Positions 9,503 to 25,465 of a stretch of DNA of 31,321 nucleotides are shown here, in pieces. The notes under the pieces were generated by a model. That model was not told the origin of the DNA and did not search any database. It saw only the letters and a list, made by a program, of their open reading frames with translations. Each line of letters begins with the position of its first letter. The first letter of the stretch is position 1. A program made the position numbers and the translations under genes. Source of the DNA: a virus (taxonomy: Duplodnaviria > Caudoviricetes); IMG/VR virus record IMGVR_UViG_3300046786_000073, positions 1 to 31,321 of that record. One strand, written 5' to 3'.

Positions 9503-9516
9503 GACAATAAACAAGC

Positions 9517-10005
9517 CTAGTTAAATTTTGCGAAATCACCGTGAAGTTTTAATGCGGCTTGTTTGTAAACATCATGTGCTTCTTCGGGAGTTTTAAAGCA
9601 TCCAAGGTGAATTGATTGGTAGTTAACCGTAATTTTTGCAATGTATCTATTTGCAGACTTATAGAAAGAAACTCCCTTGAAGCCGCTGGTGTTTGTTGAT
9701 CTTAACTTTGTGTTTCTGTTGTTTTGTGCATTGTTCGCTTCTCTCAAATTTGAAAGCAAATTGTTAGACCTGTCGCCATCAATATGATCTATCTGCTCAG
9801 GCCATCTACCGTGAATCATCATGAAAATGACTCGATGAGCGTAGTAGCCTTTGCTGTGAATCTTTACCTCTTGATAGCCATTGCTTTTTTTAGGTTTGTT
9901 TGCTTGCTTGCCTTTAACTTTATTGTTGCCGCGATCAACTTTCCAAAACAAGTTTCCATCTTTGTATTCAAAGATTTCATTCAAAAATTCTTGTGTGATT
10001 TCCAT
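9517..10005 (-). CDS. HNH-AP2 free-standing homing-type endonuclease #1
   Basis: Start re-called at MEITQEFL (10005); YAHRVIF, IDHIDGDRSNN..SNLRE and NTSGFKGV AP2 domain; antisense to the late operon. Confidence 0.9.
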   Translation of the reverse strand: MEITQEFLNEIFEYKDGNLFWKVDRGNNKVKGKQANKPKKSNGYQEVKIHSKGYYAHRVIFMMIHGRWPEQIDHIDGDRSNNLLSNLREANNAQNNRNTKLRSTNTSGFKGVSFYKSANRYIAKITVNYQSIHLGCFKTPEEAHDVYKQAALKLHGDFAKFN

Positions 10006-10120
10006 GATTGCACCAAAGAAAAAACCCTTGAACATTTGCAGTACCAGTGCAAACATTCAAGGGTCAGCCCATGGCTTAGAACTGTTAAGGTCTGGTACAC
10101 CCAAGGTCTAAGCCTTTTTT
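10006..10120 (-). ncRNA. Two-hairpin kissing-loop leader/terminator of HNH #1
   Basis: Minus strand: hairpin with loop GUACCAG, then a 17-bp hairpin with loop CUGGUAC and a U-tract; the loops are perfectly complementary; G.U pairs favour the minus strand. Confidence 0.7.
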
Positions 10121-10138
10121 CATTTTTACACAAACAGA

Positions 10139-10167
10139 TTGCCCCGTCAATACGTAAGACGTAAAAT
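10139..10167 (+). promoter_or_regulatory. Sigma70-like promoter for the tail fibre/lysis genes
   Basis: TTGCCC-17 bp-TAAAAT; downstream AGGAG RBS and ATG at 10194. Confidence 0.6.
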
Positions 10168-10193
10168 AAGGGAAACCCTTTTAGGAGTTGGAA

Positions 10194-12146
10194 ATGGCCA
10201 AGACAAAAATCTCAGAATTTAGCACGACAGCTAATAACAATTCTGATATTAACAGCATCAACATAAGTGAGGGCTGTGCCCCCAGTGGTATCAACGATGC
10301 CATTCGTGAGTTAATGCGCCAGCTCAAAGAGTTCCAAACCGGAGGTGCTGGCGACTCTGTGAACTCTGGTGGTGACTTCTCTGTTGCTACTAATAAATTC
10401 ACGGTGGCGTCTGCTTCTGGAAATACCGCTGTCGCTGGTACTTTGGGAGTGACTGGTGCAACGACATTGTCTGCCGCATTGACCTACGGTGGAGTGACCT
10501 TGTCAAATGCTGTTACTGGCACTGGCAACATGGTCCTATCCTCAAGCCCTACGCTTGTGACGCCTGCTCTTGGAACTCCGTCTAGTGCAACATTGACTAA
10601 CGCGACAGGACTGCCTATTTCCACTGGCGTGTCTGGTTTGGGTACTGGTATCGCTACGGCTCTGGCAGTCAATACTGGATCGGCTGGCGCTCCTGTTCTA
10701 TTCAACGGAGCATTGGGTACGCCTTCAAGCGGTACTGTTACTAACCTGACTGGTACTGCATCTATCAACATTAACGGAACTGTTGGTGCTACCACGGCAT
10801 CGACTGGCGCGTTTACGACCCTTTCAGCATCTTCTGACGTCACGCTCTCCGGCGGTACGGCTAATGGAGTGTTGTACCTTAACGGCTCTAAAGTTGCTAC
10901 AAGTGGTTCTGCTCTTACGTTTGATGGAAATATTCTGACCAACAGCACTGGCGCAATACGCGCAAGTGGCGCAACAGTACCAAGTTCTGGTGCTGGTTTG
11001 GAATTGCTTTATGGTGCAAGTGGTACTGGAATCAGTACCCTTCTAAGTTACGACAGAGCAACTTCTGCTTACAAACCGTTGTGGATTGATGGTTCTTATC
11101 AAGCCTATTTTATTAGTGGCTCTGAAGGTATGCGCCTCACCAGCACAGGGCTAGGTATTGGTACTAGTTCTCTTGATTCGGCGTTTAGATTTGGAGTTTA
11201 TGGGACAAATTCTTCGGCTGTATTTCAAAACTCTGCAACTGGCGTAACATCTTCTGACGGTTTTGCTGTTGGAAATTTTGGAACAACCACTGCATACGTT
11301 TATAACTACGAAGCTACACCTTTAGTTTTTGGCACAAGCGGTGCTGAAAAGATGCGCCTCGACTCCTCCGGCAACCTAGGATTAGGAGTTACTCCTAGTG
11401 CTTGGGGCGCTTTAGGATATACAAAGCCAATCCAGCTTGGAAACACAGGCGCATTTATTGCTGGATTTACTTCTTCTTATACAGCGCAACCAAGGATAGT
11501 AGTAGGAGCAAACAGCTATTTTGACGATAGCGCAGATGCTTGGAAATACATTCAAACAAACGTTGCTACTCAGTACCGTCAATATAACGGACAACACCAA
11601 TGGCACTATGCAGCCTCCGGCACAGCAGGTAACGCTATCACGTTCACCCAAGCAATGACACTGGACTCCTCTGGTAACTTGTTAGTGGGTTCAACATCTC
11701 TTATTTCAAATTCAAGAATCTGGTCGCAAGGTAATTTTACTGCAATTAATGGTCTTGGAATGAATTCCACGGCAGCAAGCGGAACAGCTACGTTTGCGTA
11801 TTTTCTATATAACGGATCTGGTGTTGGAACAATTACTTCTACAGGTTCTGCAACGTCTTACAACACTTCTTCTGATTACCGACTTAAAGACAATCCTCAG
11901 CCTTTGACGGGTAGCGGTGCATTCATTGACGCACTCAAGCCTAAGACTTGGAACTGGAAAGCAGACGGTTCTGTTGGCGTTGGTTTCATTGCTCACGAAG
12001 TGCAGGAAGTTTCTCCTGGCTCCGTGGTTGGTGAAAAAGATGGTGAACAAATGCAAGCAATGGAATACGGCTCTGCTGAGTTCATCGCTAACATCATTGC
12101 TGAACTGCAATCCCTCCGTGCCCGTGTGGCAGCTCTTGAATCTTAA
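10194..12146 (+). CDS. Tail fibre with C-terminal Peptidase S74 intramolecular chaperone
   Basis: Gly/Ser/Thr-rich; recurring MRL.SSGNL.(I/V)G junctions; TSSDYRLK...GFIAHEVQEV.P plus terminal coiled coil; start re-called at MAKTKIS. Confidence 0.9.
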   Translation: MAKTKISEFSTTANNNSDINSINISEGCAPSGINDAIRELMRQLKEFQTGGAGDSVNSGGDFSVATNKFTVASASGNTAVAGTLGVTGATTLSAALTYGGVTLSNAVTGTGNMVLSSSPTLVTPALGTPSSATLTNATGLPISTGVSGLGTGIATALAVNTGSAGAPVLFNGALGTPSSGTVTNLTGTASININGTVGATTASTGAFTTLSASSDVTLSGGTANGVLYLNGSKVATSGSALTFDGNILTNSTGAIRASGATVPSSGAGLELLYGASGTGISTLLSYDRATSAYKPLWIDGSYQAYFISGSEGMRLTSTGLGIGTSSLDSAFRFGVYGTNSSAVFQNSATGVTSSDGFAVGNFGTTTAYVYNYEATPLVFGTSGAEKMRLDSSGNLGLGVTPSAWGALGYTKPIQLGNTGAFIAGFTSSYTAQPRIVVGANSYFDDSADAWKYIQTNVATQYRQYNGQHQWHYAASGTAGNAITFTQAMTLDSSGNLLVGSTSLISNSRIWSQGNFTAINGLGMNSTAASGTATFAYFLYNGSGVGTITSTGSATSYNTSSDYRLKDNPQPLTGSGAFIDALKPKTWNWKADGSVGVGFIAHEVQEVSPGSVVGEKDGEQMQAMEYGSAEFIANIIAELQSLRARVAALES

Positions 12147-12157
12147 AAGGAAAAACC

Positions 12158-12442
12158 ATGACTATCTCTTGGAAAATCTCTCAACTTGATCGTCAAACCT
12201 CTAATGGGTTTGTAACCACTGCTCACTGGCAATGCGTTGGTATAGACGGTGACGTTTCTGACTCGGTGTATGCCACCTGCTCTTGGACTGGTGAGCCTAC
12301 CGTGGCTTATGCAGATCTCACCGAGGCTCAAGTGCTGGCATGGATTTGGGAGACTGTTGACAAAGACGCCACTGAGGCTACTGTGCAAGCCAAGATTGAT
12401 GCTCAGAAGAATCCTGTCACTGCTCAAGGTGTGCCATGGTAA
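12158..12442 (+). CDS. Small tail-fibre-associated protein
   Basis: 94 aa; WKI..L, V.TAHW, YADLTE.QVL.W and GVPW end; AAGG RBS. Confidence 0.7.
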   Translation: MTISWKISQLDRQTSNGFVTTAHWQCVGIDGDVSDSVYATCSWTGEPTVAYADLTEAQVLAWIWETVDKDATEATVQAKIDAQKNPVTAQGVPW

Positions 12443-12606
12443 GTAACGTGGAAGCTCGACTTGATACACATGAGGCTGTTTGCGCGCATCGGTACGAACA
12501 GATCAACGCTCGCCTGAAACGTCTTGAGGGCATCATGATTAAGGTCGCTGGCGTGATGCTTTGCGGCATGGCTGGCGTTATCTGGGCGTCTATCTCTAGG
12601 GTGTAA
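12436..12606 (+). CDS. Small coiled-coil plus TM protein (XhlA/holin-accessory-like)
   Basis: Not in the ORF track (56 aa): MVSNVEARLDTHEAVCAHRYEQINARLKRLEGIMIKVAGVMLCGMAGVIWASISRV. Confidence 0.7.
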   Translation: MVSNVEARLDTHEAVCAHRYEQINARLKRLEGIMIKVAGVMLCGMAGVIWASISRV

Positions 12607-12608
12607 CC

Positions 12609-13298
12609 ATTGATCCATTGACTTTGTTAGCGTTGGCAAACGGAGCCGTCCAAGCGGTTAAAAAAGGATGCCAACTCTACAAAGACATAAAGAGCGCGGC
12701 AGGAGATGTTTCTGCTGTTCTCAAGGACATTGATAAACAATTCGCCGGAAAGAAAGTCTCTAAAGAGCAAGCTGTAAAAATCGCAGAGAAGAAGGCAGAG
12801 TTCAAGGAAGCGGCTACAACCGATCCAAATGATGTGATCTCTCGGATTGGAAATCAGTTAGGTGACTTTTTTGATGCCTTTGACAAGATTGAGCAACTGT
12901 TTTACGAAGAAGAAAAACAAGCTCATCAGGTCTATGAAGGAGAGGATTCTGTCAGTAAGAGAGCACTTCAAAGAGTTTTGATTCGTTCTCGATTACAAAT
13001 GATGGAGACTGAAATGCGCGAGATCATGATTTATCAATCTCCACCTGAGTTGAAAGACTTGTGGTCAAGGTTTGAGGTGATGAGAGCGCAGATCGGTCAG
13101 GAACAAAAAAGAGCCTGGGAGAAACTAAGGATAGAAAGACAGCAAGAGGCTGCCGAACAAAAGAAAGAACGCGAGTTTTACTGGGGAATCGGAGCATGGC
13201 TGGTGTCCGTGACGGTAATATGGCTGTATCTAATCCTCCTCCTGTGGGCAATCGCTCGACACAGAGAAAACTCGTTCTCTCTATGGTGGGTAACGTGA
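12609..13298 (+). CDS. Coiled-coil protein with C-terminal TM helix (lysis region); possible ATT start
   Basis: Reads IDPLTLLALANG...; alternative TTG start at 12618; C-terminal hydrophobic helix. Confidence 0.7.
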   Translation: MDPLTLLALANGAVQAVKKGCQLYKDIKSAAGDVSAVLKDIDKQFAGKKVSKEQAVKIAEKKAEFKEAATTDPNDVISRIGNQLGDFFDAFDKIEQLFYEEEKQAHQVYEGEDSVSKRALQRVLIRSRLQMMETEMREIMIYQSPPELKDLWSRFEVMRAQIGQEQKRAWEKLRIERQQEAAEQKKEREFYWGIGAWLVSVTVIWLYLILLLWAIARHRENSFSLWWVT

Positions 13299-13441
13299 TT
13301 CTCATGCTTATCCTGGTTTTCTGTTTAACCTTTGGAGGGTTTCTTTTCATGGACTACAAAACAGAAGAAGCCAGGGCAAAGAAGATGGACAGACGAGTTG
13401 TTGAGTTGAGAAAACAGTTTGAGCAAGGTTGCGAAAAATGA
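13283..13441 (+). CDS. Small N-terminal TM plus coiled-coil protein (i-spanin-like topology)
   Basis: MVGNVILMLILVFCLTFGGFLFMDY...; ATGA-coupled to the lipoprotein gene. Confidence 0.55.
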   Translation: MVGNVILMLILVFCLTFGGFLFMDYKTEEARAKKMDRRVVELRKQFEQGCEK

Positions 13442-13617
13442 GAATCCTTATATTGTGTCTATTGCTAACAGGATGCCTTCAGGAATCTTTTAGGTATCCT
13501 TGCCAAGACCCAAAGAACTGGGAATCTCCTCGATGCCAACGTCCTCAGTGCGCGATCACTCAGGAATGTCCTGACCAACTTATCAAACCTGAAGACATGA
13601 AAGGTGATGTGCGATGA
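13438..13617 (+). CDS. Cys-rich lipoprotein (o-spanin-like position)
   Basis: MRILILCLLLTG-C lipobox; RYPCQDP.NW...C..P.C....CP. Confidence 0.7.
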   Translation: MRILILCLLLTGCLQESFRYPCQDPKNWESPRCQRPQCAITQECPDQLIKPEDMKGDVR

Positions 13618-13898
13618 ATCCTGACAAGATAGATTCTGTAATCAAGTTGCTGATTACGATCACTTTCTGTTTGACAATAACCTGTATGGTCTTTTTGTCT
13701 ATGTACAGCTTGGTCTTTGTGCCGCAACCGATGAACGCTATTGCACCGGCTGACAAACAGTTTTTCTTTTTGCTGTCTGACATGAGCAAATACATCTTGG
13801 GTTCGCTTGGCACATTGCTGGCTATCAAGGGTAAAGACGCTTTGATGGATGCGATCAAGAAAGACCCAGAACCGCCCAAAGATGAGGAGAAAAAATAA
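13614..13898 (+). CDS. Two-TM membrane protein (holin-like)
   Basis: Two hydrophobic segments and a charged C-terminal tail; AAGGTG RBS. Confidence 0.6.
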   Translation: MNPDKIDSVIKLLITITFCLTITCMVFLSMYSLVFVPQPMNAIAPADKQFFFLLSDMSKYILGSLGTLLAIKGKDALMDAIKKDPEPPKDEEKK

Positions 13899-14374
13899 TG
13901 TTGCCAGTCATTGCATCAATCGTTTCTGGTCTGATTTCTAACGGACTTCCAAAAGTTGCCGATGCCGTTATGGAAAAGGGCGTGGACTATGTCCAGCAAA
14001 AAATGGGCATTGAGTTAAAGCCTGAGCATGAAGCAACAAAAGATGACTATGCCAAATTGCAAGCTGAAGCAATGAAGCATGAGGAATTCATGGCTGAACT
14101 TGACGAGAAGTCAAGACAGAGAGCCACGGATATGCAACTGAAAGCGATGGAGTCTGATGATCCTTTGGTTCGTAGGTTTATTTATTTCTTTATTGGGTTT
14201 TGGTCTATTTTTGCTGCCGCATTTATCCCTTCACTTATTTGGGTTCCCATTGGTGAAAGCAACATGCGATTTGCCGACACTGTGCTCGGTTATGTGATGG
14301 GAACAATGGTTACTTCTATGTTTGCTTTCTTGTTGGGTTCTTCTCAAGGCAGTAGAAACAAGGATAAGAAATGA
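13898..14374 (+). CDS. Holin-like protein (3TM-holin type)
   Basis: N-terminal amphipathic helix, coiled coil, two C-terminal TMs ending FLLGSSQGS..KD; directly before the endolysin. Confidence 0.7.
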   Translation: MLPVIASIVSGLISNGLPKVADAVMEKGVDYVQQKMGIELKPEHEATKDDYAKLQAEAMKHEEFMAELDEKSRQRATDMQLKAMESDDPLVRRFIYFFIGFWSIFAAAFIPSLIWVPIGESNMRFADTVLGYVMGTMVTSMFAFLLGSSQGSRNKDKK

Positions 14375-15024
14375 CGCCAGAGATTAAACATCTTGTCGCA
14401 GCAAGGGTAGCTGAACCTCAAAAGTGGATAGAGGCTATCCTTGAGGTTTGCGAGCATTACGAAATCAACACTGATAAACGGATTGCCGCATTCATTGCAC
14501 AGACAGCGCATGAATCTGGTGGGTATAAAACACTCATTGAGAATCTTAACTATTCTGCTGACACGATGGCTGCTGTATGGCCCAATCGCTTTGCTGAAAA
14601 AGGACCAGACGGAAAATATATCAAAGAGAACGGCAAGAACAAACCAAACAAGTTTGCCTTGGCTCTCCATCGCAAGCCTGAGTCAATCGCTAATGTCGTT
14701 TACTCGAATCGTATGGGAAACGGAACGATTGAATCTGGTGAGGGGTGGCTGTACAGGGGCAGAGGTCTGAAGCAATTAACCGGAAAAGACAATATGACTC
14801 GATGCGGCAAGGCATTGAGGATTGATCTTGTCAACAATCCAGACCTTTTGCTTGAGCCTAGATTTGCTGCTCTCAGTGCAGGTTGGTTCTATTCAACAAA
14901 CAATCTGTCATCTTTCGCTGATGCTGGAGACATCAAAGGTATGACGCTCAAAATTAATGGCGGTGTAATAGGGTTGTCAGATCGTCAGAAAAGATATGAT
15001 GACATCATGGAATCAATGAAATAG
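14371..15024 (+). CDS. Endolysin, glycoside hydrolase family 19 (chitinase-like)
   Basis: RIAAFIAQTAHESG, ENLNYS, YRGRGLKQLTGKDN, SAGWF and INGG..GL.DR motifs. Confidence 0.92.
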   Translation: MTPEIKHLVAARVAEPQKWIEAILEVCEHYEINTDKRIAAFIAQTAHESGGYKTLIENLNYSADTMAAVWPNRFAEKGPDGKYIKENGKNKPNKFALALHRKPESIANVVYSNRMGNGTIESGEGWLYRGRGLKQLTGKDNMTRCGKALRIDLVNNPDLLLEPRFAALSAGWFYSTNNLSSFADAGDIKGMTLKINGGVIGLSDRQKRYDDIMESMK

Positions 15025-15481
15025 ACTTTTCATAATTTTTTCTAGCTTGTATTGCCATTTCTTTGTCTTTGAAAGTTCCAAGATAAATTCTTTTATTGTC
15101 TATGTGTATTTGAGATACCCAATGCTTTCTTTTTTGTGAAAACATTACCCCTGTTGTCCCACTTGTATTGTGTGATCTTAATGTATTATTATGTTGATTT
15201 ATAGAATTGCTTACATCTCTTAAATTTACTATCCTATTATCTTTTTTATTTCTATTTATGTGATCTATCTGATACTTTGGAAAACATCCATAAACATAAA
15301 GCCAAGCCAATCTATGTGCAAGATAGTTTTTCCCATCAACATACATTTGTATGTATCCTTTATTTTGTGATGCTCCTGATATTGATCCAGCTTTGTGACC
15401 TGCAATAGAAGTCTTTCTTGTGAAAATTCCAGTTTCAGAATCGTAATTTAACAACTCTTTAAGTCTTTCTTGAGTCAACAT
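15005..15481 (-). CDS. HNH-AP2 free-standing homing-type endonuclease #2
   Basis: LTQERLKELL.YD.ETG.F, AHRLAWLYVYG, IDHINR...DNRI.NLR and NTSG..GV AP2; AT-rich; 3' end overlaps the endolysin 3' end. Confidence 0.92.
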   Translation of the reverse strand: MLTQERLKELLNYDSETGIFTRKTSIAGHKAGSISGASQNKGYIQMYVDGKNYLAHRLAWLYVYGCFPKYQIDHINRNKKDNRIVNLRDVSNSINQHNNTLRSHNTSGTTGVMFSQKRKHWVSQIHIDNKRIYLGTFKDKEMAIQARKNYEKSISLIP

Positions 15482-15482
15482 A

Positions 15483-15599
15483 TTTGCTCCCCAGCAAAAA
15501 AGCCCACAGGGACAGTCTCGGCGTTAGCCGTGGGGAGACACTGCTAGTACAGTGCAGACTGCCCTTGTGGGCTTACTAGAATATTGCTCCCCAGCAATA
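15483..15599 (-). ncRNA. C4/CI-type antisense RNA with upstream and downstream targets
   Basis: Three-way junction (15500-15574) exposing UACUAG and UCUCCCCA; complementary targets CUAGUA and UGGGGAG upstream, and UGGGGAG at the HNH RBS. Confidence 0.75.
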
Positions 15600-15604
15600 A
15601 ATCA

Positions 15605-15633
15605 AGTGTAGCAAATTTTTTCTCAAGCGTAAA
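15605..15633 (-). promoter_or_regulatory. Promoter for the C4-like RNA and HNH #2
   Basis: TTTACG-17 bp-TACACT with TGn extension; predicted +1 near the first target hairpin. Confidence 0.55.
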
Positions 15634-15802
15634 CGTCAATCCTGGAACCAAGGCTTTTCCAGTACTTGTATTCTTCAGTCTGGTTGCTCTTATCCAGTAT
15701 CTCAGTAACCTTATTTTCTAAGATTTGCTGATACTCCATGCGTTTCTCTTTCATTTCGACTTGAGTAGGCATTGGCATTGATACTGGATAAGTGATTTTC
15801 AC
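15623..15802 (-). CDS. Hypothetical protein (59 aa)
   Basis: Not in the ORF track; GTG start overlaps the stop of the upstream gene (GTGA); MKITYPVSMPM...SLGSRIDVYA. Confidence 0.55.
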   Translation of the reverse strand: MKITYPVSMPMPTQVEMKEKRMEYQQILENKVTEILDKSNQTEEYKYWKSLGSRIDVYA

Positions 15803-16290
15803 ATCAGTCCTGCGAACGGGTTAGATAGATTGACCCAGGCTTTCCCTTGTCTGATTCTACACACCACGGACTTGTTAACTCCATATTTCTCAGCGATGAT
15901 TCTTGACGGACCTTCTGAGCAACGGATTTCGTCAGCCATTTCCTGCGTTAATTTGGCGTTTGTGGCTCTCTTATAGATTTGAATTTTTAAACGCCTTGTA
16001 GGGCTTTTTAAAGCCTTCCTGTTGCCTTTTTTCATGTGCTGTTTGGCATCGTTGTATGTCGTGTGATCTGGATTCACACAAAGCCCATTCCCACATTTGG
16101 CGACATAGTAACCTTCCCTTAACTTTCCTCCAAGAAGCTCAGTAAACAGCCTGCGAACAGCGATCATCTTTCCTGCGTGAAACACTGATGGAGTGCCGTT
16201 TGCACAATACCCAGTCCACTCCCAACAGTCTCCGTCCTCAATGGTCCTCTCTTTTAGAGTTGTAATCGTGTGAGTCTTTTGTTGTTTCAT
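15799..16290 (-). CDS. HNH/His-Cys-type nuclease-fold protein with C-terminal HTH (possibly degenerate)
   Basis: DCWEWTG, CGNGLCVNPDH and AKLT...IAEKYGV.KS.V..IR.G..W motifs. Confidence 0.75.
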   Translation of the reverse strand: MKQQKTHTITTLKERTIEDGDCWEWTGYCANGTPSVFHAGKMIAVRRLFTELLGGKLREGYYVAKCGNGLCVNPDHTTYNDAKQHMKKGNRKALKSPTRRLKIQIYKRATNAKLTQEMADEIRCSEGPSRIIAEKYGVNKSVVCRIRQGKAWVNLSNPFAGLM

Positions 16291-16291
16291 G

Positions 16292-16366
16292 CTAAGCTAA
16301 TATGTAAAGAATGACGGACAGGGCAATGATTAGCCCTATCACTAAAATGCCGATGATGAGTGCCAA
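16292..16366 (-). CDS. Possible 24-aa single-TM peptide
   Basis: TTG-start LALIIGILVIGLIIALSVILYILA exactly fills the gap between two genes; no clear RBS. Confidence 0.35.
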   Translation of the reverse strand: MALIIGILVIGLIIALSVILYILA

Positions 16367-16367
16367 G

Positions 16368-16616
16368 TTAATCTTGTAAGTCCTGAATCATTTTTTGATG
16401 ATGATCTGGGACTAACCTTTTAACCTTTAGGTAAAGATTGTGGTCAGAATCGAAAGTTATATCGTCCTGACCATCGAAGATGTTTATGTCGTAATCATCA
16501 GCTAATCCAACATCTGGATCGCCTGGCTCAAACGTATAGAAAACTTCAACAGGACCGTCATCGGTTTCGTACTCAAAACTTCCGGTCGAATACTTTAATG
16601 CGTCAATGCGTTTCAT
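16368..16616 (-). CDS. Acidic hypothetical protein
   Basis: MKRIDA start ATGA-coupled to the upstream gene; EPGDPDVG motif. Confidence 0.65.
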   Translation of the reverse strand: MKRIDALKYSTGSFEYETDDGPVEVFYTFEPGDPDVGLADDYDINIFDGQDDITFDSDHNLYLKVKRLVPDHHQKMIQDLQD

Positions 16617-16894
16617 ACTGTCCACTCCCTTTCATTACGATTTTTGGAAGATTTGACAATGTTTCCTGTGAGTTTGACAAGACCCATCTTCTGAAGCTCT
16701 GGAAGGCGTCTAGAAACCGCAGAACTCTCCAGACCAAGGCGAGAGGCAATCCCGTCCTTCCCCATTGGTCCATGAGTTGATAGGCAATCCACAATCATTG
16801 CGAAATGCTTTTCTGGTTGGAATTGTTCAGCAGCCTCAAAAGAGGTGATCGGATCGGTGGAACGTGCTCGTTTAAAAAGATCAAAAAGTTTCAT
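16613..16894 (-). CDS. Winged-helix DNA-binding protein
   Basis: ARSTDPITS..AA N-terminus, IA..LGL...AVSRRLPEL...GLV and EREW; AGGAG RBS. Confidence 0.8.
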   Translation of the reverse strand: MKLFDLFKRARSTDPITSFEAAEQFQPEKHFAMIVDCLSTHGPMGKDGIASRLGLESSAVSRRLPELQKMGLVKLTGNIVKSSKNRNEREWTV

Positions 16895-16911
16895 TGCTAC
16901 TCCTAAAAGTT

Positions 16912-16944
16912 TGAGGTACTCGCTACACCTTTCGCTTTCCCTCA
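16912..16944 (-). ncRNA. Intergenic hairpin with GAAA/AGUA (loop E-like) internal loop
   Basis: UGAGG-GAAA-GCG-AAAGG-UGU-AGCGAGUA-CCUCA. Confidence 0.45.
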
Positions 16945-16951
16945 GTTAAGT

Positions 16952-17089
16952 TTACTCTGTTTTTTGCTCTTGTTCTGCTTTTTGTTGCCCAATTTTTTGA
17001 AGCAACACAAAAGCTCCAGACTTCGTGGGAAGCTCTCCCAAGACGTTCATTAAAAACACGATTTCGTTTTCTTCAAGTTCAAGTTTCAT
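16952..17089 (-). CDS. Hypothetical protein (45 aa)
   Basis: Not in the ORF track; AAGGAG RBS; MKLELEENEIVFLMNVLGELPTKSGA... Confidence 0.7.
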   Translation of the reverse strand: MKLELEENEIVFLMNVLGELPTKSGAFVLLQKIGQQKAEQEQKTE

Positions 17090-17098
17090 TTTCACTCC

Positions 17099-17506
17099 TT
17101 AAAATGGCACGTCCGATGTGTCATCATCCTCAAGCTGTGGCAAACCTTCATACTTTATAGGTTTGTCTTTACTCTCTGGACGCTTCAGGATTGTCATCTC
17201 GTTACAGATGATTGTGGTAGCGTTGACTTCCACTCCACTTTTGTTGACGTATTTCTCGTATTTTATTGTTCCCTCCACATAGATCAAAGAGCCTTTCTTA
17301 ACGTACTCTCCAACAATCTCAGCGAGTTTGTCAAAGAACGTGAGTCGATGCCATTCGGTGGTTTCAATCATCTCGCCAGACTTGTCTTTACGGCGTGATG
17401 AGGTTGCCAGTGTTGCGTTGGCTACTGGCTTACCTGCCGCGCTGAATCGCACTTCAGGGTCTTTTCCTACGTTACCAACTAGATGAACTTTACAGACGCT
17501 TGCCAT
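17099..17506 (-). CDS. ssb: Single-stranded DNA-binding protein
   Basis: KVHLVGNVGKDPEVR, TEWHR and YVKKGSLIYVEG motifs; acidic DVPF tail. Confidence 0.96.
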   Translation of the reverse strand: MASVCKVHLVGNVGKDPEVRFSAAGKPVANATLATSSRRKDKSGEMIETTEWHRLTFFDKLAEIVGEYVKKGSLIYVEGTIKYEKYVNKSGVEVNATTIICNEMTILKRPESKDKPIKYEGLPQLEDDDTSDVPF

Positions 17507-18137
17507 TTTTTTCCTTAATTTCGTTCAGTTTTTGAATCATACTTTCCAAGTCTTTTAAGAATGTCCTAACCTCATCCTCCATCTTTTGAATAAGCTCATC
17601 ATTTCTTTCTAACCTCTTGACGAACAGTTGTAGTCCTTCTGGAGCGCGATCATCGAAGCAAACGTAATCACACCACTGGCGTCCGGTACAAGCCATTTGC
17701 CACATCATCTGAGCCTGATGGTCTGGGTCTATCTTGTCGTTCAGAATCGAATCCAGGTGATTGTGAATCTCTTTACACTTGATCTCAATGAGTCCGTGTT
17801 CTCCCACGAAACCATCAGGTGAGCATCCCGCCATCGGAATAGTCGGATGCTCGACCCAAGCGACTTGTTCGACTGAGGTGAGGTTTTCTGCTTCGTAGAC
17901 TGCTCTGGCGACTGGTTCAATTTCTGTACCTCTTTGCATTGCGGCTGTGGTGAAAAACTCTGTGGGTTGTCCAGTCATTCGTTCGCAAAGAAGTTGAGCC
18001 ATGTACTTAGCCCGACTTGCTGATGCGCCTGATTTTGTTTTAGCCAACAGGTCTGCCATGCGAGAAGCTGAGACTTTGCCCAGACGCAATTCTTTCCATG
18101 CTTCCGAACCTTGTGAAATTTCATGCAAATTCTCCAT
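17490..18137 (-). CDS. YqaJ-like (lambda exonuclease family) recombination exonuclease
   Basis: QGSEAW..LRLG..SAS, MQRG.E.EP.AR, CSPDG, IEIKC and Q..WQM.CTGR.WCD motifs. Confidence 0.92.
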   Translation of the reverse strand: MENLHEISQGSEAWKELRLGKVSASRMADLLAKTKSGASASRAKYMAQLLCERMTGQPTEFFTTAAMQRGTEIEPVARAVYEAENLTSVEQVAWVEHPTIPMAGCSPDGFVGEHGLIEIKCKEIHNHLDSILNDKIDPDHQAQMMWQMACTGRQWCDYVCFDDRAPEGLQLFVKRLERNDELIQKMEDEVRTFLKDLESMIQKLNEIKEKNGKRL

Positions 18138-18612
18138 AAAGCTCCTTCCTTTTGATTTGATAAATACTTTGTGCTTGTTCTACTGTTTTAAAAATTCCAA
18201 GATGCAATAGTTTTCCTTTAAAAGAAATTCTTGCTTGATATTTTCCATATTTTGTATTTCTAACTCCCATTGGCAAATTTGTTTTTCTTTTTCTTTTTTT
18301 ATGATTCCATGCGTTTTCAATTACAGTCGCTTCTCTAAGATTTTCAATTCTGTCATCTAGAGAATCTCCATTTATATGGTCAACGCATGGGCTTGGAAAT
18401 TTTCCATAAACATAAAGAAACATCAATCGACCACGCTTATATCTTTTATTGTTTATTTTTATATTCCAATAATTTTTTCCATTTGCAGGTGATGCACAAC
18501 CAGCCTCCATTCCATTGATCTGGTTGTGATATTTTGATACGTTTTTCCAAAAGAATTTTCCTTCGTTTGGATACACATCAAACAGGTTGATAAGATCATT
18601 TTTTGTAATCAT
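18121..18612 (-). CDS. HNH-AP2 free-standing homing-type endonuclease #3
   Basis: VDHINGDSLDDRIENLRE and LPMGV...YQARI...LG.F AP2; AT-rich; inserted between erf and yqaJ. Confidence 0.88.
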   Translation of the reverse strand: MITKNDLINLFDVYPNEGKFFWKNVSKYHNQINGMEAGCASPANGKNYWNIKINNKRYKRGRLMFLYVYGKFPSPCVDHINGDSLDDRIENLREATVIENAWNHKKRKRKTNLPMGVRNTKYGKYQARISFKGKLLHLGIFKTVEQAQSIYQIKRKELYGEFA

Positions 18613-18618
18613 GATCTT

Positions 18619-18647
18619 ATCGTATCACACAAATAGCCCTTGTTCAA
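18619..18647 (-). promoter_or_regulatory. Putative promoter giving a leaderless HNH #3 mRNA
   Basis: TTGAAC-17 bp-TACGAT with TGn; ATG 7 nt after the -10; no SD. Confidence 0.5.
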
Positions 18648-19225
18648 TCATTTGCAAGTGCTCCTACCAAAACCTTCTCTTGTTCTGCTGTCAGCGCAAA
18701 GGTGTCTCTCAACTTGTCTGTGGTGTACGCGCCTTCTTTGATCTTCTGGATTGCTTGAGTTAGGCGACTGTTTTCGATTGAAGGTTTCTTTCTGGCGACT
18801 TCATGCGTATGTGCGTCTGCATCGTTATCACCTTCTGTGGGGATTGCAAACGTCTGAAACGCCATGTATTTATAGGCTGCTGACATGGCTTTGTTGGTTG
18901 CCTTGTCTCCGCTATCCATCGCTTCGCCAAACGTCCTAGCGGTGTGTTTAGAGCCATCCTCTGCGGATACCAGATCAAACTCTGCCTCTACTGTGACATA
19001 GAACAAAGCTCCACCGGATTTCGAGGTACGTTCTTCACAAGTCCTGCCCAACATTCTTGGAACGATCACTAGACCATTCTGAGCCATGATTGATGACAGG
19101 ACGTTGTAGACAGCGTCAATGCCTCGGAACTTGTATCCAGCGCCTTGTGTGTTTGTTGAGGATTTTGCGATGCCAATTTTGCAGAGTTCTGCTTGGACTG
19201 CATTGATTGCTTGATAGACTTTCAT
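18644..19225 (-). CDS. erf: ERF-family single-strand annealing protein
   Basis: GYKFRGID.V, GEAMDSGDKATNKAMSAAYKY and IPTEGD.DAD motifs. Confidence 0.88.
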   Translation of the reverse strand: MKVYQAINAVQAELCKIGIAKSSTNTQGAGYKFRGIDAVYNVLSSIMAQNGLVIVPRMLGRTCEERTSKSGGALFYVTVEAEFDLVSAEDGSKHTARTFGEAMDSGDKATNKAMSAAYKYMAFQTFAIPTEGDNDADAHTHEVARKKPSIENSRLTQAIQKIKEGAYTTDKLRDTFALTAEQEKVLVGALAND

Positions 19226-19234
19226 TACTACTCC

Positions 19235-19438
19235 TTAGGTTAAATTATCAATCTGTTTCTTCAATGCTGTTACTTCAGCTTTGTGATCTTCAGATTGATA
19301 TTGCATGATATTACAAATTTCACGGATTTTTGACTCCAACATTCCTACGCGATAGGCAAGACGATCTACCGCCTCACCATCTCGAAAATGAATGTCTGAA
19401 ATTTGTTTGATTGAGTTAATAAGATATTCTGGATTCAT
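19235..19438 (-). CDS. Hypothetical coiled-coil protein
   Basis: Start re-called at MNPEYL (ATGA coupling, GGAG RBS); RLAYRVGMLESKIRE. Confidence 0.7.
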   Translation of the reverse strand: MNPEYLINSIKQISDIHFRDGEAVDRLAYRVGMLESKIREICNIMQYQSEDHKAEVTALKKQIDNLT

Positions 19439-19587
19439 TTTGTTCTCCACATATTTAGCCAAAGCCATTTGTTACCCAAGAGACGCACAGAACGAACCCA
19501 AGCGCGTTGATTGTGTCTGTTCTGCTCCTTGGGTATGTAGTCAACATTAAAGAGCCTACGGACTGTTTTAAGGGCTTGTGTGTTCAT
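19435..19587 (-). CDS. Hypothetical early protein (50 aa)
   Basis: Not in the ORF track; MNTQALKTVRRLFNVDYIPKEQNRHNQRAWVRSVRLLGNKWL...; GGAGG RBS. Confidence 0.7.
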   Translation of the reverse strand: MNTQALKTVRRLFNVDYIPKEQNRHNQRAWVRSVRLLGNKWLWLNMWRTK

Positions 19588-19664
19588 TAGCCCCTCCATG
19601 CCAACATCACGCCAATGGCGATCATGGTCAAGATGGTTACGATTGCTGAGATTGTTTCTTTCAT
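19587..19664 (-). CDS. 25-aa single-TM early peptide
   Basis: MKETISAIVTILTMIAIGVMLAWRG; AAGGAG RBS; TAATG coupling to the next gene. Confidence 0.7.
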   Translation of the reverse strand: MKETISAIVTILTMIAIGVMLAWRG

Positions 19665-19676
19665 TTGCTACTCCTT

Positions 19677-19775
19677 GTTAACCTGTTAAGGTGAGAGAAT
19701 CTTAACGCACAACTTAACAGATTGTCTAGGGGTTTATACTAATCCTTAGCAAATTGTTAAGGTTACAATGTTAAG
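19677..19775. promoter_or_regulatory. Divergent early promoters with operator-like GTTAAG/CTTAAC repeats
   Basis: Leftward TAGACA-18-TAAGAT (19699-19728); rightward -10 TACAAT (19764-69); about 7 half-sites including the near-palindrome CCTTAGCAAATTGTTAAGG (19744-62). Confidence 0.7.
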
Positions 19776-19858
19776 GCTGGTCAGAAACAGGGTTAGCGCC
19801 TGGTGGATCAATGTATCGAGTGCAACGCCCACAACTCTGCTTTATGAGGCTGACCAGC
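19776..19858 (+). ncRNA. Cloverleaf-like structured leader upstream of cro
   Basis: 9-bp closing stem GCTGGTCAG/CTGACCAGC enclosing three short hairpins; begins at the predicted +1. Confidence 0.5.
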
Positions 19859-19872
19859 ATTTAAGGAAAACC

Positions 19873-20091
19873 ATGAATTTACAAAAAGCCATTGAAATCG
19901 CTGGATCAAAGAGTAAACTTGCGACCCTTCTCGGAGTGTCTCGCGCTGCTGTTACTCAGTGGGACGAACTTCCTGAGAAGCGTATTAACCAGCTCAAAGG
20001 TATCAACGAATGGCAAACGCATTTCAGTGGCGAACAGGACAAAGCTCAATCGCAGTCGATCTCCAGCGTCAGCGAGACAAGTCCACAATGA
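19873..20091 (+). CDS. cro: Cro-like (YdaS-type) HTH repressor
   Basis: Start re-called at MNLQKAIEIAGSKSKLATLLGVSRAAVTQW..LP..R; TAAGGA RBS. Confidence 0.88.
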   Translation: MNLQKAIEIAGSKSKLATLLGVSRAAVTQWDELPEKRINQLKGINEWQTHFSGEQDKAQSQSISSVSETSPQ

Positions 20092-20201
20092 CGAGTGTTC
20101 GCAAGGACGATCCGAACAAAGAAGAAACAGTCACCAAGTTCAGAAAGTCAATCGTAATTCTCCCCAGTGTTCACCGTTTACCAAGCAAGGCAAAGATATG
20201 A
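20010..20201 (+). CDS. Hypothetical protein overlapping the cro 3' end
   Basis: AAAGGT RBS; ATGA-coupled to the next gene. Confidence 0.5.
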   Translation: MANAFQWRTGQSSIAVDLQRQRDKSTMTSVRKDDPNKEETVTKFRKSIVILPSVHRLPSKAKI

Positions 20202-20344
20202 AAAAACTCATCGCGGTTTACTTAGCAGTCCTGGCGTCAACAGCATGGGCTTGCACCACTCACACGGTTGTCTCCGGTGGTCGGATCGTCACTTGCACGA
20301 CCTGCTGTTTTGCCGTAGGAAATTGCACAACAACTTGTTTTTGA
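20198..20344 (+). CDS. Secreted six-cysteine peptide (48 aa)
   Basis: MKKLIAVYLAVLASTAWA signal peptide followed by CTTHTVVSGGRIVTCTTCCFAVGNCTTTCF. Confidence 0.75.
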   Translation: MKKLIAVYLAVLASTAWACTTHTVVSGGRIVTCTTCCFAVGNCTTTCF

Positions 20345-20455
20345 TATAGAATGTTTTGAAACACGGCTAGGTCTGAAGTCATGAGCAGACCGAAAAGGGT
20401 TACACCTTCCCCTGCCGATTGTTTCTTCTAAAGGTGGTAAAAAAGGTGAAAGTCA
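20323..20455 (+). promoter_or_regulatory. Promoter and structured, pseudoknot-capable 5' leader of the replication initiator
   Basis: TTGCAC-18-TAGAAT; three-way junction 20358-20425; loop CACCTT complementary to AAGGTG at 20431 and 20443. Confidence 0.65.
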
Positions 20456-21250
20456 ATGCACTACTACAAGAGAAATCTTGGTGACTATGCCAAGAAAGCA
20501 GGCCGTCTGACAATGCTCCAGCACGGAGCGTACACGCTTCTTATAGATTCGTGTTATGACAGAGAAGTATTCCCAACACTAGAACAAGCACTTGAATGGA
20601 CTTGGGCCTCAACTGAGGCTGAAGTTGATGCTGTCAAATTTGTTCTCAATAGATTCTTTGTGTTAGATAAAGATGGCTGTTATGTGCAAGATAGGATTCT
20701 TGAAGAACTTTTGCACTATCACAAAAATGCAGACACAAACAAACGAATCGCTGAAGAAAGAGAAGCGAAGCGTAGAGAAAAACGCACGAACCGTGCACAA
20801 GACGTAAACGAAGCTCCACCTAACCATAAACCACTAACCACTAACCAAGAACCACTAACCAAGAACCATATTAAGAAAGCAACTGTCGTTGCAACGCCTG
20901 ACGGCGTTTCTGAAATAGTTTGGAAAGAGTTTGTTAACCACAGGAAATCTAAGAAAGCACAGATCACTCAAACCGTGATTAACGAAATTGCCAAACAAGC
21001 AAACATGGCAGGATGGACACTTGAGGACGCATTGAAGGAAACGATTGTCAGAAACTGGCAATCATTCAAAGCTGATTGGGTTGCATCCAAAACAACATTT
21101 GCCCAACAAGCTGCCGACATAGCAAGAACAACAGTCCCTGGAAAACAAGAGCGTGATCCTGCCTTGGTTAAGTTAGATCAAGATAAGTTGATAACGAAAC
21201 CGCCATCGCTTGAGACTTTGCAGAAGATAGCTATGCTGAGGACAAAATGA
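20456..21250 (+). CDS. Replication initiator, DUF1376/YdaU N-terminal domain (lambda O position)
   Basis: MHYY...GDY......L...QHGAY.LL.D..Y start; internal iterons; W.EF..HRK.KKA..T and NWQSFKADW C-terminal domain. Confidence 0.85.
   Translation: MHYYKRNLGDYAKKAGRLTMLQHGAYTLLIDSCYDREVFPTLEQALEWTWASTEAEVDAVKFVLNRFFVLDKDGCYVQDRILEELLHYHKNADTNKRIAEEREAKRREKRTNRAQDVNEAPPNHKPLTTNQEPLTKNHIKKATVVATPDGVSEIVWKEFVNHRKSKKAQITQTVINEIAKQANMAGWTLEDALKETIVRNWQSFKADWVASKTTFAQQAADIARTTVPGKQERDPALVKLDQDKLITKPPSLETLQKIAMLRTK
20822..20870 (+). repeat. Seven tandem AACCANN heptamers: putative origin iterons
   Basis: AACCATA AACCACT AACCACT AACCAAG AACCACT AACCAAG AACCATA in the initiator linker. Confidence 0.75.
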
Positions 21251-24117: not shown

Positions 24118-24250
24118 ACCTCAAAAAGAAAAAATGGAAAAAATCGTTAAAGGCATGAAAAAATCCATGCCTGAAATGAAAAAATCATACGGAAAAGACG
24201 CTAAATCAGTAATGTACGCAACGGCAACGAAGTTAGCAAAGAAAAAGTGA
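24104..24250 (+). CDS. Small Lys-rich protein (48 aa)
   Basis: Not in the ORF track; MKLSKPQKEKMEKIVKGMKK...YGKDAKSVMYATATKLAKKK; GAGGA RBS; GTGA coupling. Confidence 0.75.
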   Translation: MKLSKPQKEKMEKIVKGMKKSMPEMKKSYGKDAKSVMYATATKLAKKK

Positions 24251-24864
24251 TTCCAAAAAAACTGCACTTTGTTTGGATCGGAGACGAGTCCAAACGCCCT
24301 GATAAATGTATCGGGACATGGAGAGAATTGAACCCAGACTATGAGATAAAAATCTGGGGCAATGAAGAACTAAAACAACCTTGGTTCAATGCCAAGCATA
24401 TGCAGTCGATGTTAGCCCATGAACTCTGTGGGGTCGCTGACATGATGAGATATGAAATCCTCTACAACGAGGGTGGGATTACGTTAGACGCTGATTCTGT
24501 CTGTCTCAGTCCCTTAGAAGATTGGTTGCTCAAACCCGCAGCATTTGCCCATTGGGAACAGGAAATCATGCGTCCTGGGTTGATTAACGTATCTGTAATG
24601 GGATCGGAAAAAGGAAACCCGTTCTTTGGAGAGTGTATTAACCGACTCCAAAAGAAAGCATCGGTGATTGACAAGCGAGCCTGGGAGACAACCGGACCTG
24701 CTCACATCACGGAGGTTTTCAGGGAAACGGGTTACGACTTAACTGTTTATCCGACACATTACTTTACAAAACATCACTTCTCAGGAAAGATTTACAAAGG
24801 CAATGGACACTGTTTCGCAACTCAATTCTGGGGATCAACTCGTGGATATGACGGAATTGATTGA
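24247..24864 (+). CDS. Glycosyltransferase, GT32/OCH1-like (DxD)
   Basis: IPKKLHFVWIG, W..LNPDY, AD..RYEILY..GGI.LDAD and TGP motifs. Confidence 0.9.
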   Translation: MIPKKLHFVWIGDESKRPDKCIGTWRELNPDYEIKIWGNEELKQPWFNAKHMQSMLAHELCGVADMMRYEILYNEGGITLDADSVCLSPLEDWLLKPAAFAHWEQEIMRPGLINVSVMGSEKGNPFFGECINRLQKKASVIDKRAWETTGPAHITEVFRETGYDLTVYPTHYFTKHHFSGKIYKGNGHCFATQFWGSTRGYDGID

Positions 24865-25465
24865 ACTCAGAGATGGGTGGTGGTGGCCGAAACACGACAA
24901 AGAGGCTTGGAAGTGGATTCCCAGGGAGATTCAAGCCCTTCCAGAACTGCTTAAATGGGTTCCAGAGCGCGGAACAATCATCCAGGCAGGTGCTAACTGT
25001 GGGGTCTGGATTAAAGCGTACTCAAGCCTTTTTAACAAGGTTTATACGTTCGAGCCAAACGACCTGAATTGGGAATGTTTACTGAGAAACGTAAACGAGC
25101 CAAACGTCAACATGACGAAAGCCGGACTGAGCGACAGGATGGGTTACTGTAAGTCTGTGGACGGAGAAGCTGAGAACTGGGGCGCGATGCAGATCGAGGA
25201 ATCTGATTCCGGTATCCCGATGGTGACGATTGACTCGCTTAACATTGACTGCGACCTCATCCAATTAGACGTTGAAGGATTTGAGGAAAACGCTTTGAAA
25301 GGTGCTTTTCAGACGATCCAAAGGTGTAAACCTGTCATCATCATCGAGCAAAAGCGACTCGGAAAAAACGGCATGACAGACGCTGAAATTGCTATAATGA
25401 TCCAAGACTGGGGTTATTATTTCGCTGAAAGAGTGATCTCAGATAATGTCTTTATCCCGAGGTGA
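24848..25465 (+). CDS. FkbM-family SAM-dependent methyltransferase
   Basis: IQAGANCG, VYTFEP, TIDSL and LIQLDVEGFE..ALKGA..TI..CKP.I..E motifs; start re-called at MTELIEL. Confidence 0.9.
   Translation: MTELIELRDGWWWPKHDKEAWKWIPREIQALPELLKWVPERGTIIQAGANCGVWIKAYSSLFNKVYTFEPNDLNWECLLRNVNEPNVNMTKAGLSDRMGYCKSVDGEAENWGAMQIEESDSGIPMVTIDSLNIDCDLIQLDVEGFEENALKGAFQTIQRCKPVIIIEQKRLGKNGMTDAEIAIMIQDWGYYFAERVISDNVFIPR

Follow-up and report, generated by a model that had tools for sequence, protein, structure and literature searches.

Three putative RNA leader families with covarying loop-target pairs precede two HNH endonuclease genes and a replication initiator gene in a tailed-phage genome

Introduction

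How might a phage with no visible CI repressor hold back its replication initiator and the selfish nucleases that it carries? The question arises from the window, by which we mean the whole 31,321-nucleotide stretch of IMG/VR record IMGVR_UViG_3300046786_000073 (Caudoviricetes). A first-pass annotation had proposed that three leaders lacking sequence similarity share one RNA design, an exposed anti-SD loop that can pair with either of two target copies, one of them being the real RBS. All of the named motifs were found where they had been placed, and the leaders (here a, b, and c) indeed show no clear similarity to one another (local alignment, shuffle P of 0.03 to 0.19). The absence of a visible CI was likewise borne out: among the 44 + 11 ORFs scanned, in a record that is about 90% complete, neither CI nor an integrase was found, and a Cro-like gene was the only repressor-type find.

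Results

At the gathering threshold, Rfam gave no match anywhere in the window, and a BLAST comparison of the leaders with annotated phages gave no real match. Folding z-scores were −4.15 for leader a, −5.63 for leader b, and +0.42 for leader c. The probability that a shuffled leader would contain the complementary run, computed post hoc and for a single leader each time, was 0.005 for a, 0.007 (upstream) and 0.008 (downstream) for b, and 0.04 for c. Segments a′ and b′ of leader b pair within their own leader only. Between leaders, 6 nt of the c loop match leader a and 5 nt of loop A (leader a) match leader c, which we take to be chance matches. The promoter scan, taken alone, is at chance level (16 sites found versus 18.2 expected), and the RNA runs that were found are contigs of relatives (shares of ≤0.18).

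HNH#1, an HNH_3+AP2 endonuclease of 162 aa (Pfam/PHROG), occupies positions 9517 to 10005 on the minus strand, and its homologues share the ATG at 10005. Together with leader a and two promoter-like sites, it forms insertion cassette 1 (9509 to 10204, minus strand, borders approximate). The cassette site is empty in L178 and L196, and a contig joint from 9508 to 10205 in run X1 corresponds to its absence. One of the two sites is a candidate sigma70-like promoter for leader a (10122 to 10150, minus strand), found by the promoter scan and present at the same place in 20 of 21 homologues; the other, a divergent candidate (10139 to 10167, plus strand) also picked by the scan, points towards the tail-fibre gene and recurs in 21 of 21.

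Leader a, on the minus strand, comprises two hairpins. Loop A of hairpin A (10073 to 10114), GUACCAG at 10092 to 10098, is predicted to kiss loop B, CUGGUAC at 10041 to 10047, of hairpin B (10017 to 10065), a terminator-like 18-bp stem with a U tract. Hairpin B is the longest stem in the terminator scan, and 7 of 17 of its pairs show compensatory changes. Between the two loops, both sides have changed in three of seven pairs, 91 of 91 cells are paired, and three loop codes occur, this covariation depending on two sequences. The second target proposed for loop A, the RBS-proximal UUGGUGC (10010 to 10016, 5 to 11 nt before the ATG), is a probable SD; we rejected it as a target, the match being partial and weak, devoid of compensatory change, and collapsing in the two distant homologues. 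Leader a is better read as a kissing-loop terminator leader, probably a transcription attenuator. A stem-only search of metagenomes returned 24 hits, of which 18 were true members, all with the loops of the window, and 6 were unrelated. Linker-pattern searches for distant members yielded none; in one of them the pattern allowed a gap too short to recover even its own positives. The 19 genome hits and 6 unrelated others scored nothing with model R2. The same model found no new member among 50 viral records, and neither R1 nor R2, each run on 151 bacterial genomes without a positive control, gave a hit.

HNH#2 (HNH_3+AP2, 158 aa; 15005 to 15481, minus strand, ATG at 15481; Pfam/PHROG) has no close homologue, the best reaching 44%. 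With leader b it makes up insertion cassette 2 (14947 to 15622, minus strand, left border approximate), which is missing from 15 of 15 relatives holding the flanking ORF and, as seen from a contig joint from 14946 to 15623, from three of four runs. Read along the minus strand, leader b begins with a candidate extended −10-like box (15605 to 15613), recognized by eye and absent from the promoter-scan picks, and continues with a 5′ hairpin (15582 to 15599) containing a1, UGGGGAG at 15587 to 15593, and with the b1 target CUAGUA (15574 to 15579), which is complementary to the b′ loop. A three-way junction (15495 to 15574), drawn from folding and comparison, has a long closing stem, P1, followed by a U tract, and holds the b′ hairpin (loop UACUAG, 15544 to 15549), the single-stranded a′ UCUCCCCA (15531 to 15538), and a tetraloop hairpin (15519 to 15530). 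A second copy of the a target, a2 (UGGGGAG, 15487 to 15493), overlaps the SD.

The leader b family was reached via initiator homologues, and the exact leader b pattern was absent from the viral contigs searched. A leave-window-out HMM, the valid test given that the R1 score of the window is circular, detects leader b at an E value of 1.4e-6. In 121 of 121 members a1 matches its own a′ over 7 nt; there are four classes, and matches between classes extend over at most 4 nt. The b′/b1 pair comprises 20 loop classes, with 159 of 162 cells paired and a cognate value of 0.93 versus 0.58 (P = 1e-5), a permutation P value that, like those given below for leader c, is too optimistic on independence because the loop classes are mutually related. 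The first-pass annotation had listed the pairing of a′ with both UGGGGAG copies correctly, while missing the covarying b′/b1 pair. Its RBS copy is no shared trait of the family: a2 is full length in the window and degenerate in family copies; just 2 of the 121 members, counting the window, have a copy of at least 7 nt. When b-type transcripts are folded in truncated form, with the terminator strand not yet made, a1:a′ is predicted in 76 of 77 cases and b1:b′ in 60 of 77. The full terminator fold is far more stable than the alternative, at −52.0 against −26.5 kcal/mol in the truncated form, so that a kinetic trap would be required for read-through. As the earlier comparison with P1 C4 and P4 CI suggested, leader b is better read as a C4-like RNA, with reordered arms and an added terminator, that probably works as an attenuator.

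Loops and targets of this kind are also short inverted repeats less than 100 nt apart, and leader a scores on both strands within the window, so that one could regard the matches as DNA repeats kept by template switching or DNA recognition, with no RNA role. We find this hardly credible. On the transcribed strand, G.U pairs outnumber A.C pairs by 55 to 3 in the stems of leader a and by 7 to 1 in b′/b1, which points to selection on the RNA strand. The matching is moreover limited to loop letters, flanks excluded. A two-strand symmetry of leader a was rejected, its plus-strand U tract being lost in homologues.

The DUF1376/primosomal-type replication initiator (20456 to 21250, plus strand; Pfam/PHROG) follows leader c, whose elements all lie on the plus strand. 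A candidate sigma70-like promoter site (20324 to 20352, promoter scan) is followed by a three-way junction with a short U-rich tail (20358 to 20426); a −10-like box also precedes leader c in the homologues listed. The P3 loop, UUACACCUU (20400 to 20408), has two targets defined by covariation, namely, the proximal copy T1 (20431 to 20440, AAGGUG at 20431), a putative decoy, and T2 (20443 to 20450, AAGGUG at 20443), which overlaps the SD. Over 15 loop classes, cognate pairing averaged −9.06 versus −4.93 kcal/mol with T1 and −7.58 versus −4.53 kcal/mol with T2 (P = 1e-5 for each), and in the window itself the loop forms an unbroken run of six pairs with each of the two copies, at −7.9 and −7.4 kcal/mol. 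Because the loop covaries with both downstream copies, the decoy-plus-RBS reading holds for leader c; of the single design once proposed, this is the part that stands, leaders a and b falling outside it. The term anti-SD is inexact even here, as in one c subtype T2 follows the change of the loop while the adjacent SD stays unchanged. Leader c is no more stable than its shuffles and hence stands on comparative evidence; the terminator scan of the window found no canonical terminator in it, which makes the release of a short copy uncertain. The U tracts of the leaders lie at 10017 to 10023 in a, 15495 to 15500 in b, and 20420 to 20428 in c.

Case c had gone unrecognized in the first-pass annotation. 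By cmscan, it aligns with the int-alpA model (RF02996) over the full model length (alignment 1 to 71) with 34.1 bits (E = 5e-4; gathering cutoff, 35.8), and it has the conserved junction letters and the U-rich tail. As is typical of int-alpA, it lies in phage or mobile DNA, a short distance upstream of a gene. Two relatives pass the cutoff (L106, 38.2; L186, 38.4), and eight others listed score 29.0 to 34.0. On this comparison, leader c appears to be a divergent int-alpA RNA. In bacterial int-alpA members above the cutoff, the loop also covaries with both targets (P = 0.001 and 0.009), as judged from the 16 of 25 loci that could be parsed, 9 remaining unparsed and two of the parsed rows (L364 and L378) looking mis-cut. 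The covariation check thus came out positive for all three leaders in relatives, indicating that the pairings are under selection, and the leaders are three RNA families, each with its own covarying loop-target pair, rather than one design.

What is new in this window is the swapping of leader types at one slot. Exactly one leader type lies within 1 kb upstream, at the operon head, in 79 of 80 initiator homologues, none having two; these are 66 c, 12 b, and 1 a, assigned by script in 64 cases and by eye in 15. The leader type differs between sibling phages whose flanks are near-identical, and two distinct initiator genes, in L122 and L383, have a-type leaders ahead of them. Since they are exchanged at one slot, the leader types would do the same job. 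Both HNH leaders came with insertion cassettes; a leader is present on the HNH cassettes that depend on a promoter of their own, and the third HNH gene, inside an operon, has none.

That one and the same leader stands ahead of many unrelated genes bears on whether these RNAs are switches responding to a protein or small ligand, be it the downstream protein, Cro, a host factor, or a metabolite, in the style of guanidine-IV. The invariant junction letters of int-alpA and a two-hairpin topology identical to that of guanidine-IV would fit such a response, but the paired letters are free to vary and no Rfam riboswitch matched at E ≤ 10, and we consider it quite improbable.

Discussion

The leaders probably restrain expression of the genes that follow them, with no need for a repressor protein. 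With moderate confidence, we favor protein-free limiters in which a nascent leader that pairs with itself would permit expression; short copies set free at the U tract would likely compete in trans for the same sites and shut off later transcripts. Transcription, termination, the direction of control, and trans action are what we infer here; the alternative folds are predictions of folding. In leader a, the kiss between loops A and B would hinder closing of terminator B; in leader b, pairing of a1 with a′ and of b1 with b′ would sequester the strand that forms the 5′ side of the terminator stem; in leader c, the loop would sit on decoy T1 and leave T2 and the SD free, and a released copy bound to T1 or T2 would block translation. 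There are precedents: P4 CI RNA terminates through pairing with seqA and seqC (PMC4825925), and for the guanidine-IV riboswitch, kissing of the terminator loop causes antitermination and becomes harder after completion of the stem (PMC11611296).

Covariation reads the same for action in cis or in trans and for switching on or off. Every pairing is possible inside one transcript, leader c is without a clear terminator, and a simple leaky terminator is known from T4 mobE (PMC2988022); the leaders could thus act in cis only, pairing and folding kinetics setting a constant low level of read-through or translation with no feedback from released RNA. This seems to us somewhat unlikely, since a weak promoter or RBS would suffice for a fixed level. 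The many loop codes (15 or more in c, 20 in b′, and 3 in a) also speak for trans action, in view of P1/P7 C4, where the code sets immunity (PMC5320573), although codes of such number could also come from drift.

The opposite sign of control, with cis pairing as the off state and released short RNAs turning the gene on in trans as a delay timer, has a model in IsrK, a related design whose short form acts in trans, giving about 140-fold activation of its own read-through mRNA (PMC4825925), and the c loop is able to pair with T2 and the SD in cis. In leaders a and b, however, cis pairing competes with the terminator and hence should favor read-through, and in leader c T1 lies closer to the loop and has the better mean pairing of the two targets; we hold such a timer to be improbable.

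Going beyond the limiters that we favor, we tentatively entertain RNA-only timing and immunity in a clade of small CI-less phages with three exchangeable leaders. Short RNAs might silence later or superinfecting copies of the same code, the dozens of orthogonal codes would form exclusion groups, and homing cassettes would have captured the modules for self-limitation. If true, this would also supply the function of int-alpA, an orphan motif that already gains a directly testable mechanism, one loop with two covarying targets. Two apparently uncatalogued families are added, a rearranged C4 with a terminator and a ligand-free kissing-loop attenuator. If the leaders act in trans, they would explain both the rationing of the replication initiator in repressor-less phages and the way in which selfish nucleases driven by promoters of their own curb their toxicity, and they would offer a naturally occurring collection of compact, orthogonal RNA regulators.

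Among known systems, the hairpins and terminators of T4-family homing endonucleases likewise limit endonuclease expression through RNA structure, but these are plain hairpins that hide the RBS; a late promoter opens them, and they lack loop-target pairing (PMC2988022). IsrK/SeqA of Gifsy-1 (RF01394; PMC4825925) is a short terminated leader acting in trans on its own read-through transcript; no leader of the window matches RF01394, and IsrK activates via a long helix and an upstream ORF. Leader a resembles the guanidine-IV (mepA) riboswitch and Gd4v (PMC9788692, PMC11611296) in its two hairpins, loop-loop pairing, and 3′ terminator. It differs in that its loop letters vary with full compensation, without sign of a ligand, and in that it precedes HNH and initiator genes rather than guanidine-related ones; neither the window's leader a nor those of L001 and L122 matched Rfam.

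Nearest to leader b are C4 of P1/P7 (RF01695; c4-a1b1, RF03163; c4-2, RF02944; clan CL00128) and P4 CI RNA with seqA and seqC. For C4, RNase P processing and repression in trans are known (PMC5320573). Leader b shares with C4 the three-way junction, the tetraloop arm, and two antisense segments, the b′ loop and single-stranded a′, with upstream targets ordered a1-b1 as in the P1 record, and its b′/a′ core suggestively resembles that of P1 c4 (HMM E = 0.16). In contrast to C4, its arms run b′-a′-tetraloop instead of tetraloop-b′-a′, the U tract comes after P1, b1 abuts P1, there is no b2 before the ATG, and a2 is mostly degenerate. At E ≤ 10, neither RF01695 nor RF02944 matched leader b, and family members were missed as well, while the control P4 region scored 74.9 bits.

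For leader c the counterpart is int-alpA, a motif that we take to originate from Weinberg et al. 2017 and that Rfam types as "Gene; sRNA." The two have in common the three-way junction, its conserved letters, the pyrimidine loop, and the U-rich tail, whereas leader c has a longer P2 and stands at the head of a lytic-type replication operon. The Rfam model carries no loop-target pairs and stops before T2; to it, the present analysis adds two covarying targets.

Covariation of loops and targets in the three leaders

The first-pass annotation had proposed that one RNA design is used three times in this phage, each leader having an anti-SD loop, a decoy copy of its target and a copy at the RBS. 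All the motifs that it named were found in place. In shuffled leaders, the chance of a complementary run, calculated post hoc, was 0.005 for the leader of HNH#1 (leader a), 0.007 and 0.008 for that of HNH#2 (leader b), and 0.04 for that of the DUF1376 replication initiator (leader c), and the folding z-scores were -4.15, -5.63, and +0.42, respectively. On these values the single sequence is only suggestive, and the argument therefore depends on relatives, in which loops and targets covaried in all three cases. The observation is real, and the three leaders are variants related to known RNA kinds.

Leader a (minus strand, before the ATG at 10005) was present in all 21 close homologues of HNH#1 for which the upstream region was available, at the same site and head-to-head with the tail-fibre gene. 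In these leaders the stems vary and the loops are fixed, as they are in 26 viral matches and 18 of 24 metagenome matches. Two distant members, L122 and L383 (MW202710.1), head initiator genes and have loops that differ from those of the window but are still complementary, with 3 of 7 pairs changed on both sides; loop A (GUACCAG) of the 5' hairpin and loop B (CUGGUAC) of the terminator hairpin were paired in 91/91 cells, compared to 1 to 52% in slid controls, a covariation that depends on two sequences. Duplex energies were -9.1, -6.9, and -8.9 for own loops and -1.6 to -3.5 for crossed ones. The RBS, proposed as a second target, showed no two-sided change, and in L122 and L383 its pairing weakened to -0.8 and -5.1, respectively. 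Leader a therefore appears to be a kiss between the 5' hairpin and the terminator loop. Its stems contain 55 G.U versus 3 A.C, which fits the expectation for an RNA on the transcribed strand.

YUNR-type tetramers are typical of antisense recognition loops, and one starts both loop B (10041-10047; all three codes, including L122 and L383) and the a1 loop of leader b (15587-15594). A metagenome contig, L161, has a leader a identical to that of the window and may be the same phage, hence not independent support. Distant HNH homologues (L024-L026 and L028) have a lone promoter-proximal hairpin about 60 to 90 nt upstream, without a terminator partner, whose 7-nt loop resembles loop A.

Relatives of leader b (minus strand, before the ATG at 15481) were first met upstream of initiator homologues. 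A pattern scan gave 120 viral loci, 96 of them distinct, and a profile made without the window recovered leader b (E 1.4e-6). In this family, a 5' hairpin with target a1 is followed by target b1, a long stem P1, a U tract, and the RBS, and P1 encloses a hairpin with antisense segment b', single-stranded antisense segment a', and a tetraloop hairpin. A 7-nt match between a' and its own a1 was present in 121/121 members; there were 4 classes, with at most 4 nt across classes, the scan pattern having fixed most of a' so that just these few were observable. The b' loop, free in the pattern, matched b1 across 20 classes (0.93 versus 0.58; p 1e-5), with 159/162 cells paired, and this second pair is also present in the window. 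The RBS copy a2 attained 7 nt in only 2/121 members, the window included; in the window's copy, blocking of the RBS would add little more than a supplement. In transcripts ending just after a', a1:a' pairing was predicted in 76 and b1:b' pairing in 60 of 77 distinct members, and would sequester the 5' strand of P1; the completed terminator fold is predicted to be far more stable than this pairing. As modeled, leader b is an attenuator design.

Leader c (plus strand, before the ATG at 20456) matched Rfam int-alpA (RF02996) over the full model length with 34.1 bits, slightly short of the cut-off of 35.8, which two homologues, L106 and L186, exceed. A descriptor applied to all collected loci parsed 62 int-alpA-type leaders in 15 loop classes. 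The duplex energy at the proximal target T1 was -9.06 kcal/mol for own-class versus -4.93 for other-class loops (own best in 10/15), and over the 17 nt immediately preceding the start codon it was -7.58 versus -4.53 (8/15); both permutation p values were 1e-5, which exaggerates independence since the classes are kin, and an earlier pass had used 10 classes. In a subtype of 20 loci with 4 loop codes, T1 and the second target, T2, both tracked the loop, while the SD directly after T2 was nearly constant. T2 is therefore a target independently of the SD, and to call the loop simply anti-SD is inexact here. Int-alpA was above cut-off in 26/151 bacterial genomes from the same order as genome G001, and in the 16/25 bacterial loci parsed both downstream segments preferred their own loop (p 0.001 and 0.009). 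The decoy-plus-RBS reading thus holds for leader c and, judging from these sequences, probably extends to the whole int-alpA family.

A short-P2 int-alpA subtype (L058, L064, L066-L069, L072, L073, L087, L095, L115, L193, and L196; four loop codes) precedes a small conserved ORF whose start codon is GTG or ATG and which overlaps the beginning of the initiator gene.

Exchange of leaders and their genomic setting

Among 80 initiator homologues, an int-alpA leader was found in 51 by script and in 15 by eye, a b-type leader in 12, and an a-type leader in 1; the remaining homologue is cut short. No homologue carried more than one type within 1 kb. Leader type or code differs between sibling phages whose upstream DNA is closely similar, and R1, the RNA search model that scored leader b, found one copy in 19/38 viral records and never two. 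The shared logic thus stands, as modules exchangeable at the initiator slot, but a single design does not. The b-type leaders (L213-L332) lie ahead of a wide range of first genes that are unrelated to one another, among them several initiator N-termini, HNH-like genes, and small ORFs, so the leader travels separately from the gene that follows. At the L184 locus, the slot, after a 48-aa ORF, is occupied by a fourth kind of structured leader, which is longer, contains several boxes complementary to one another, ends in a terminator-like element, and has no match in Rfam.

The HNH#1 and HNH#2 leaders arrived together with their genes: the insertions carrying them are absent from relatives (cassette 1 from all 4 informative ones, cassette 2 from 15/15 possessing the flanking ORF) and contigs from public runs join across both sites. 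Such contigs also join across a third HNH gene (18088->18638). This gene (18121-18612, minus strand), between ERF and YqaJ, lies inside the operon, overlaps its neighbors, and has no promoter or structured leader of this kind; it is an internal control for the two leader-bearing cassettes. Cassette 1 also has an outward promoter-like site (10139-10167, plus strand) in 21/21 homologues, gives the tail-fibre gene a new RBS, and breaks its coupling to the upstream gene.

The record of 31,321 bases, estimated to be about 90% complete, encodes a terminase, SU10-type portal, tail fibre, and GH19 endolysin, with ERF/YqaJ/SSB in the left operon and Cro/DUF1376/NinB in the right. As the annotation had it, there is no visible CI: neither CI nor integrase families matched among the 44 + 11 ORFs scanned. 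Besides Cro, the sole regulator candidate is a small gene of the left operon (16613-16894, minus strand) that encodes a winged-HTH (MarR-like) protein. The leader of the Cro-like gene (19774-19860, plus strand) has a predicted long stem (-37.6 kcal/mol over 19761-19876), partly retained in L183, and adjacent DXD glycosyltransferase and FkbM methyltransferase genes (24247-25465, plus strand) lie ahead of the terminase.

Proposed mechanism and comparison with known RNAs

Starting from the established sequences, covariation, exchange, and cassettes, we lean modestly toward a burst permitted in cis and then shut off in trans by short leader copies, a model in which we infer the direction and the trans action. 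Each leader would begin a few bases downstream of a promoter-like site (the promoter scan by itself was at chance level). Before any leader RNA accumulates, cis pairing would promote read-through in leaders a and b and keep T2/SD free in leader c. That the leaders work through such cis pairing only seems rather unlikely, and we rank it below burst and shut-off. In the latter model, short copies terminated at the U tracts would carry free antisense loops and occupy loop A, a1/b1, or T1/T2 on later transcripts, and the outcome would be an expression burst followed by shut-off specific to the loop code.

A literature search covering few subscription papers returned no account of loop targets for int-alpA, a rearranged C4, or a kissing leader like leader a. 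In the text available, int-alpA occurs only among gene names in PMC13612085, and the term also appears in PMC12370729; the supplement of Weinberg 2017 (PMC5737381) could depict an int-alpA pseudoknot. Fremin 2023 (PMC10690425) describes DNAVirus_187, a 49-nt, mainly freshwater motif upstream of DUF1376 genes; judged by this description, it could be a portion of one of the leaders described here.

Precedents include P4 CI RNA with seqA/seqC and IsrK, which activates (PMC4825925); processing and code specificity of C4 RNA (PMC5320573; PMC8198154); kissing-loop antitermination, hampered after the terminator completes (PMC11611296; PMC9788692); and hairpins and terminators at T4 endonuclease genes (PMC2988022). 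The likening of leader b to the C4/CI system agrees with the a1-b1...b'-a' order, the same as in the P1 c4 record. The Rfam C4 and c4-2 covariance models leave leader b unmatched, while the P4 control region does match, and the resemblance of its core to P1 c4 (E 0.16, second-best match in 16 kb) is suggestive only. Compared with the standard C4 layout (Weinberg 2010; PMC2864571), the tetraloop arm, which precedes b' in C4 and c4-2, follows a' in leader b.
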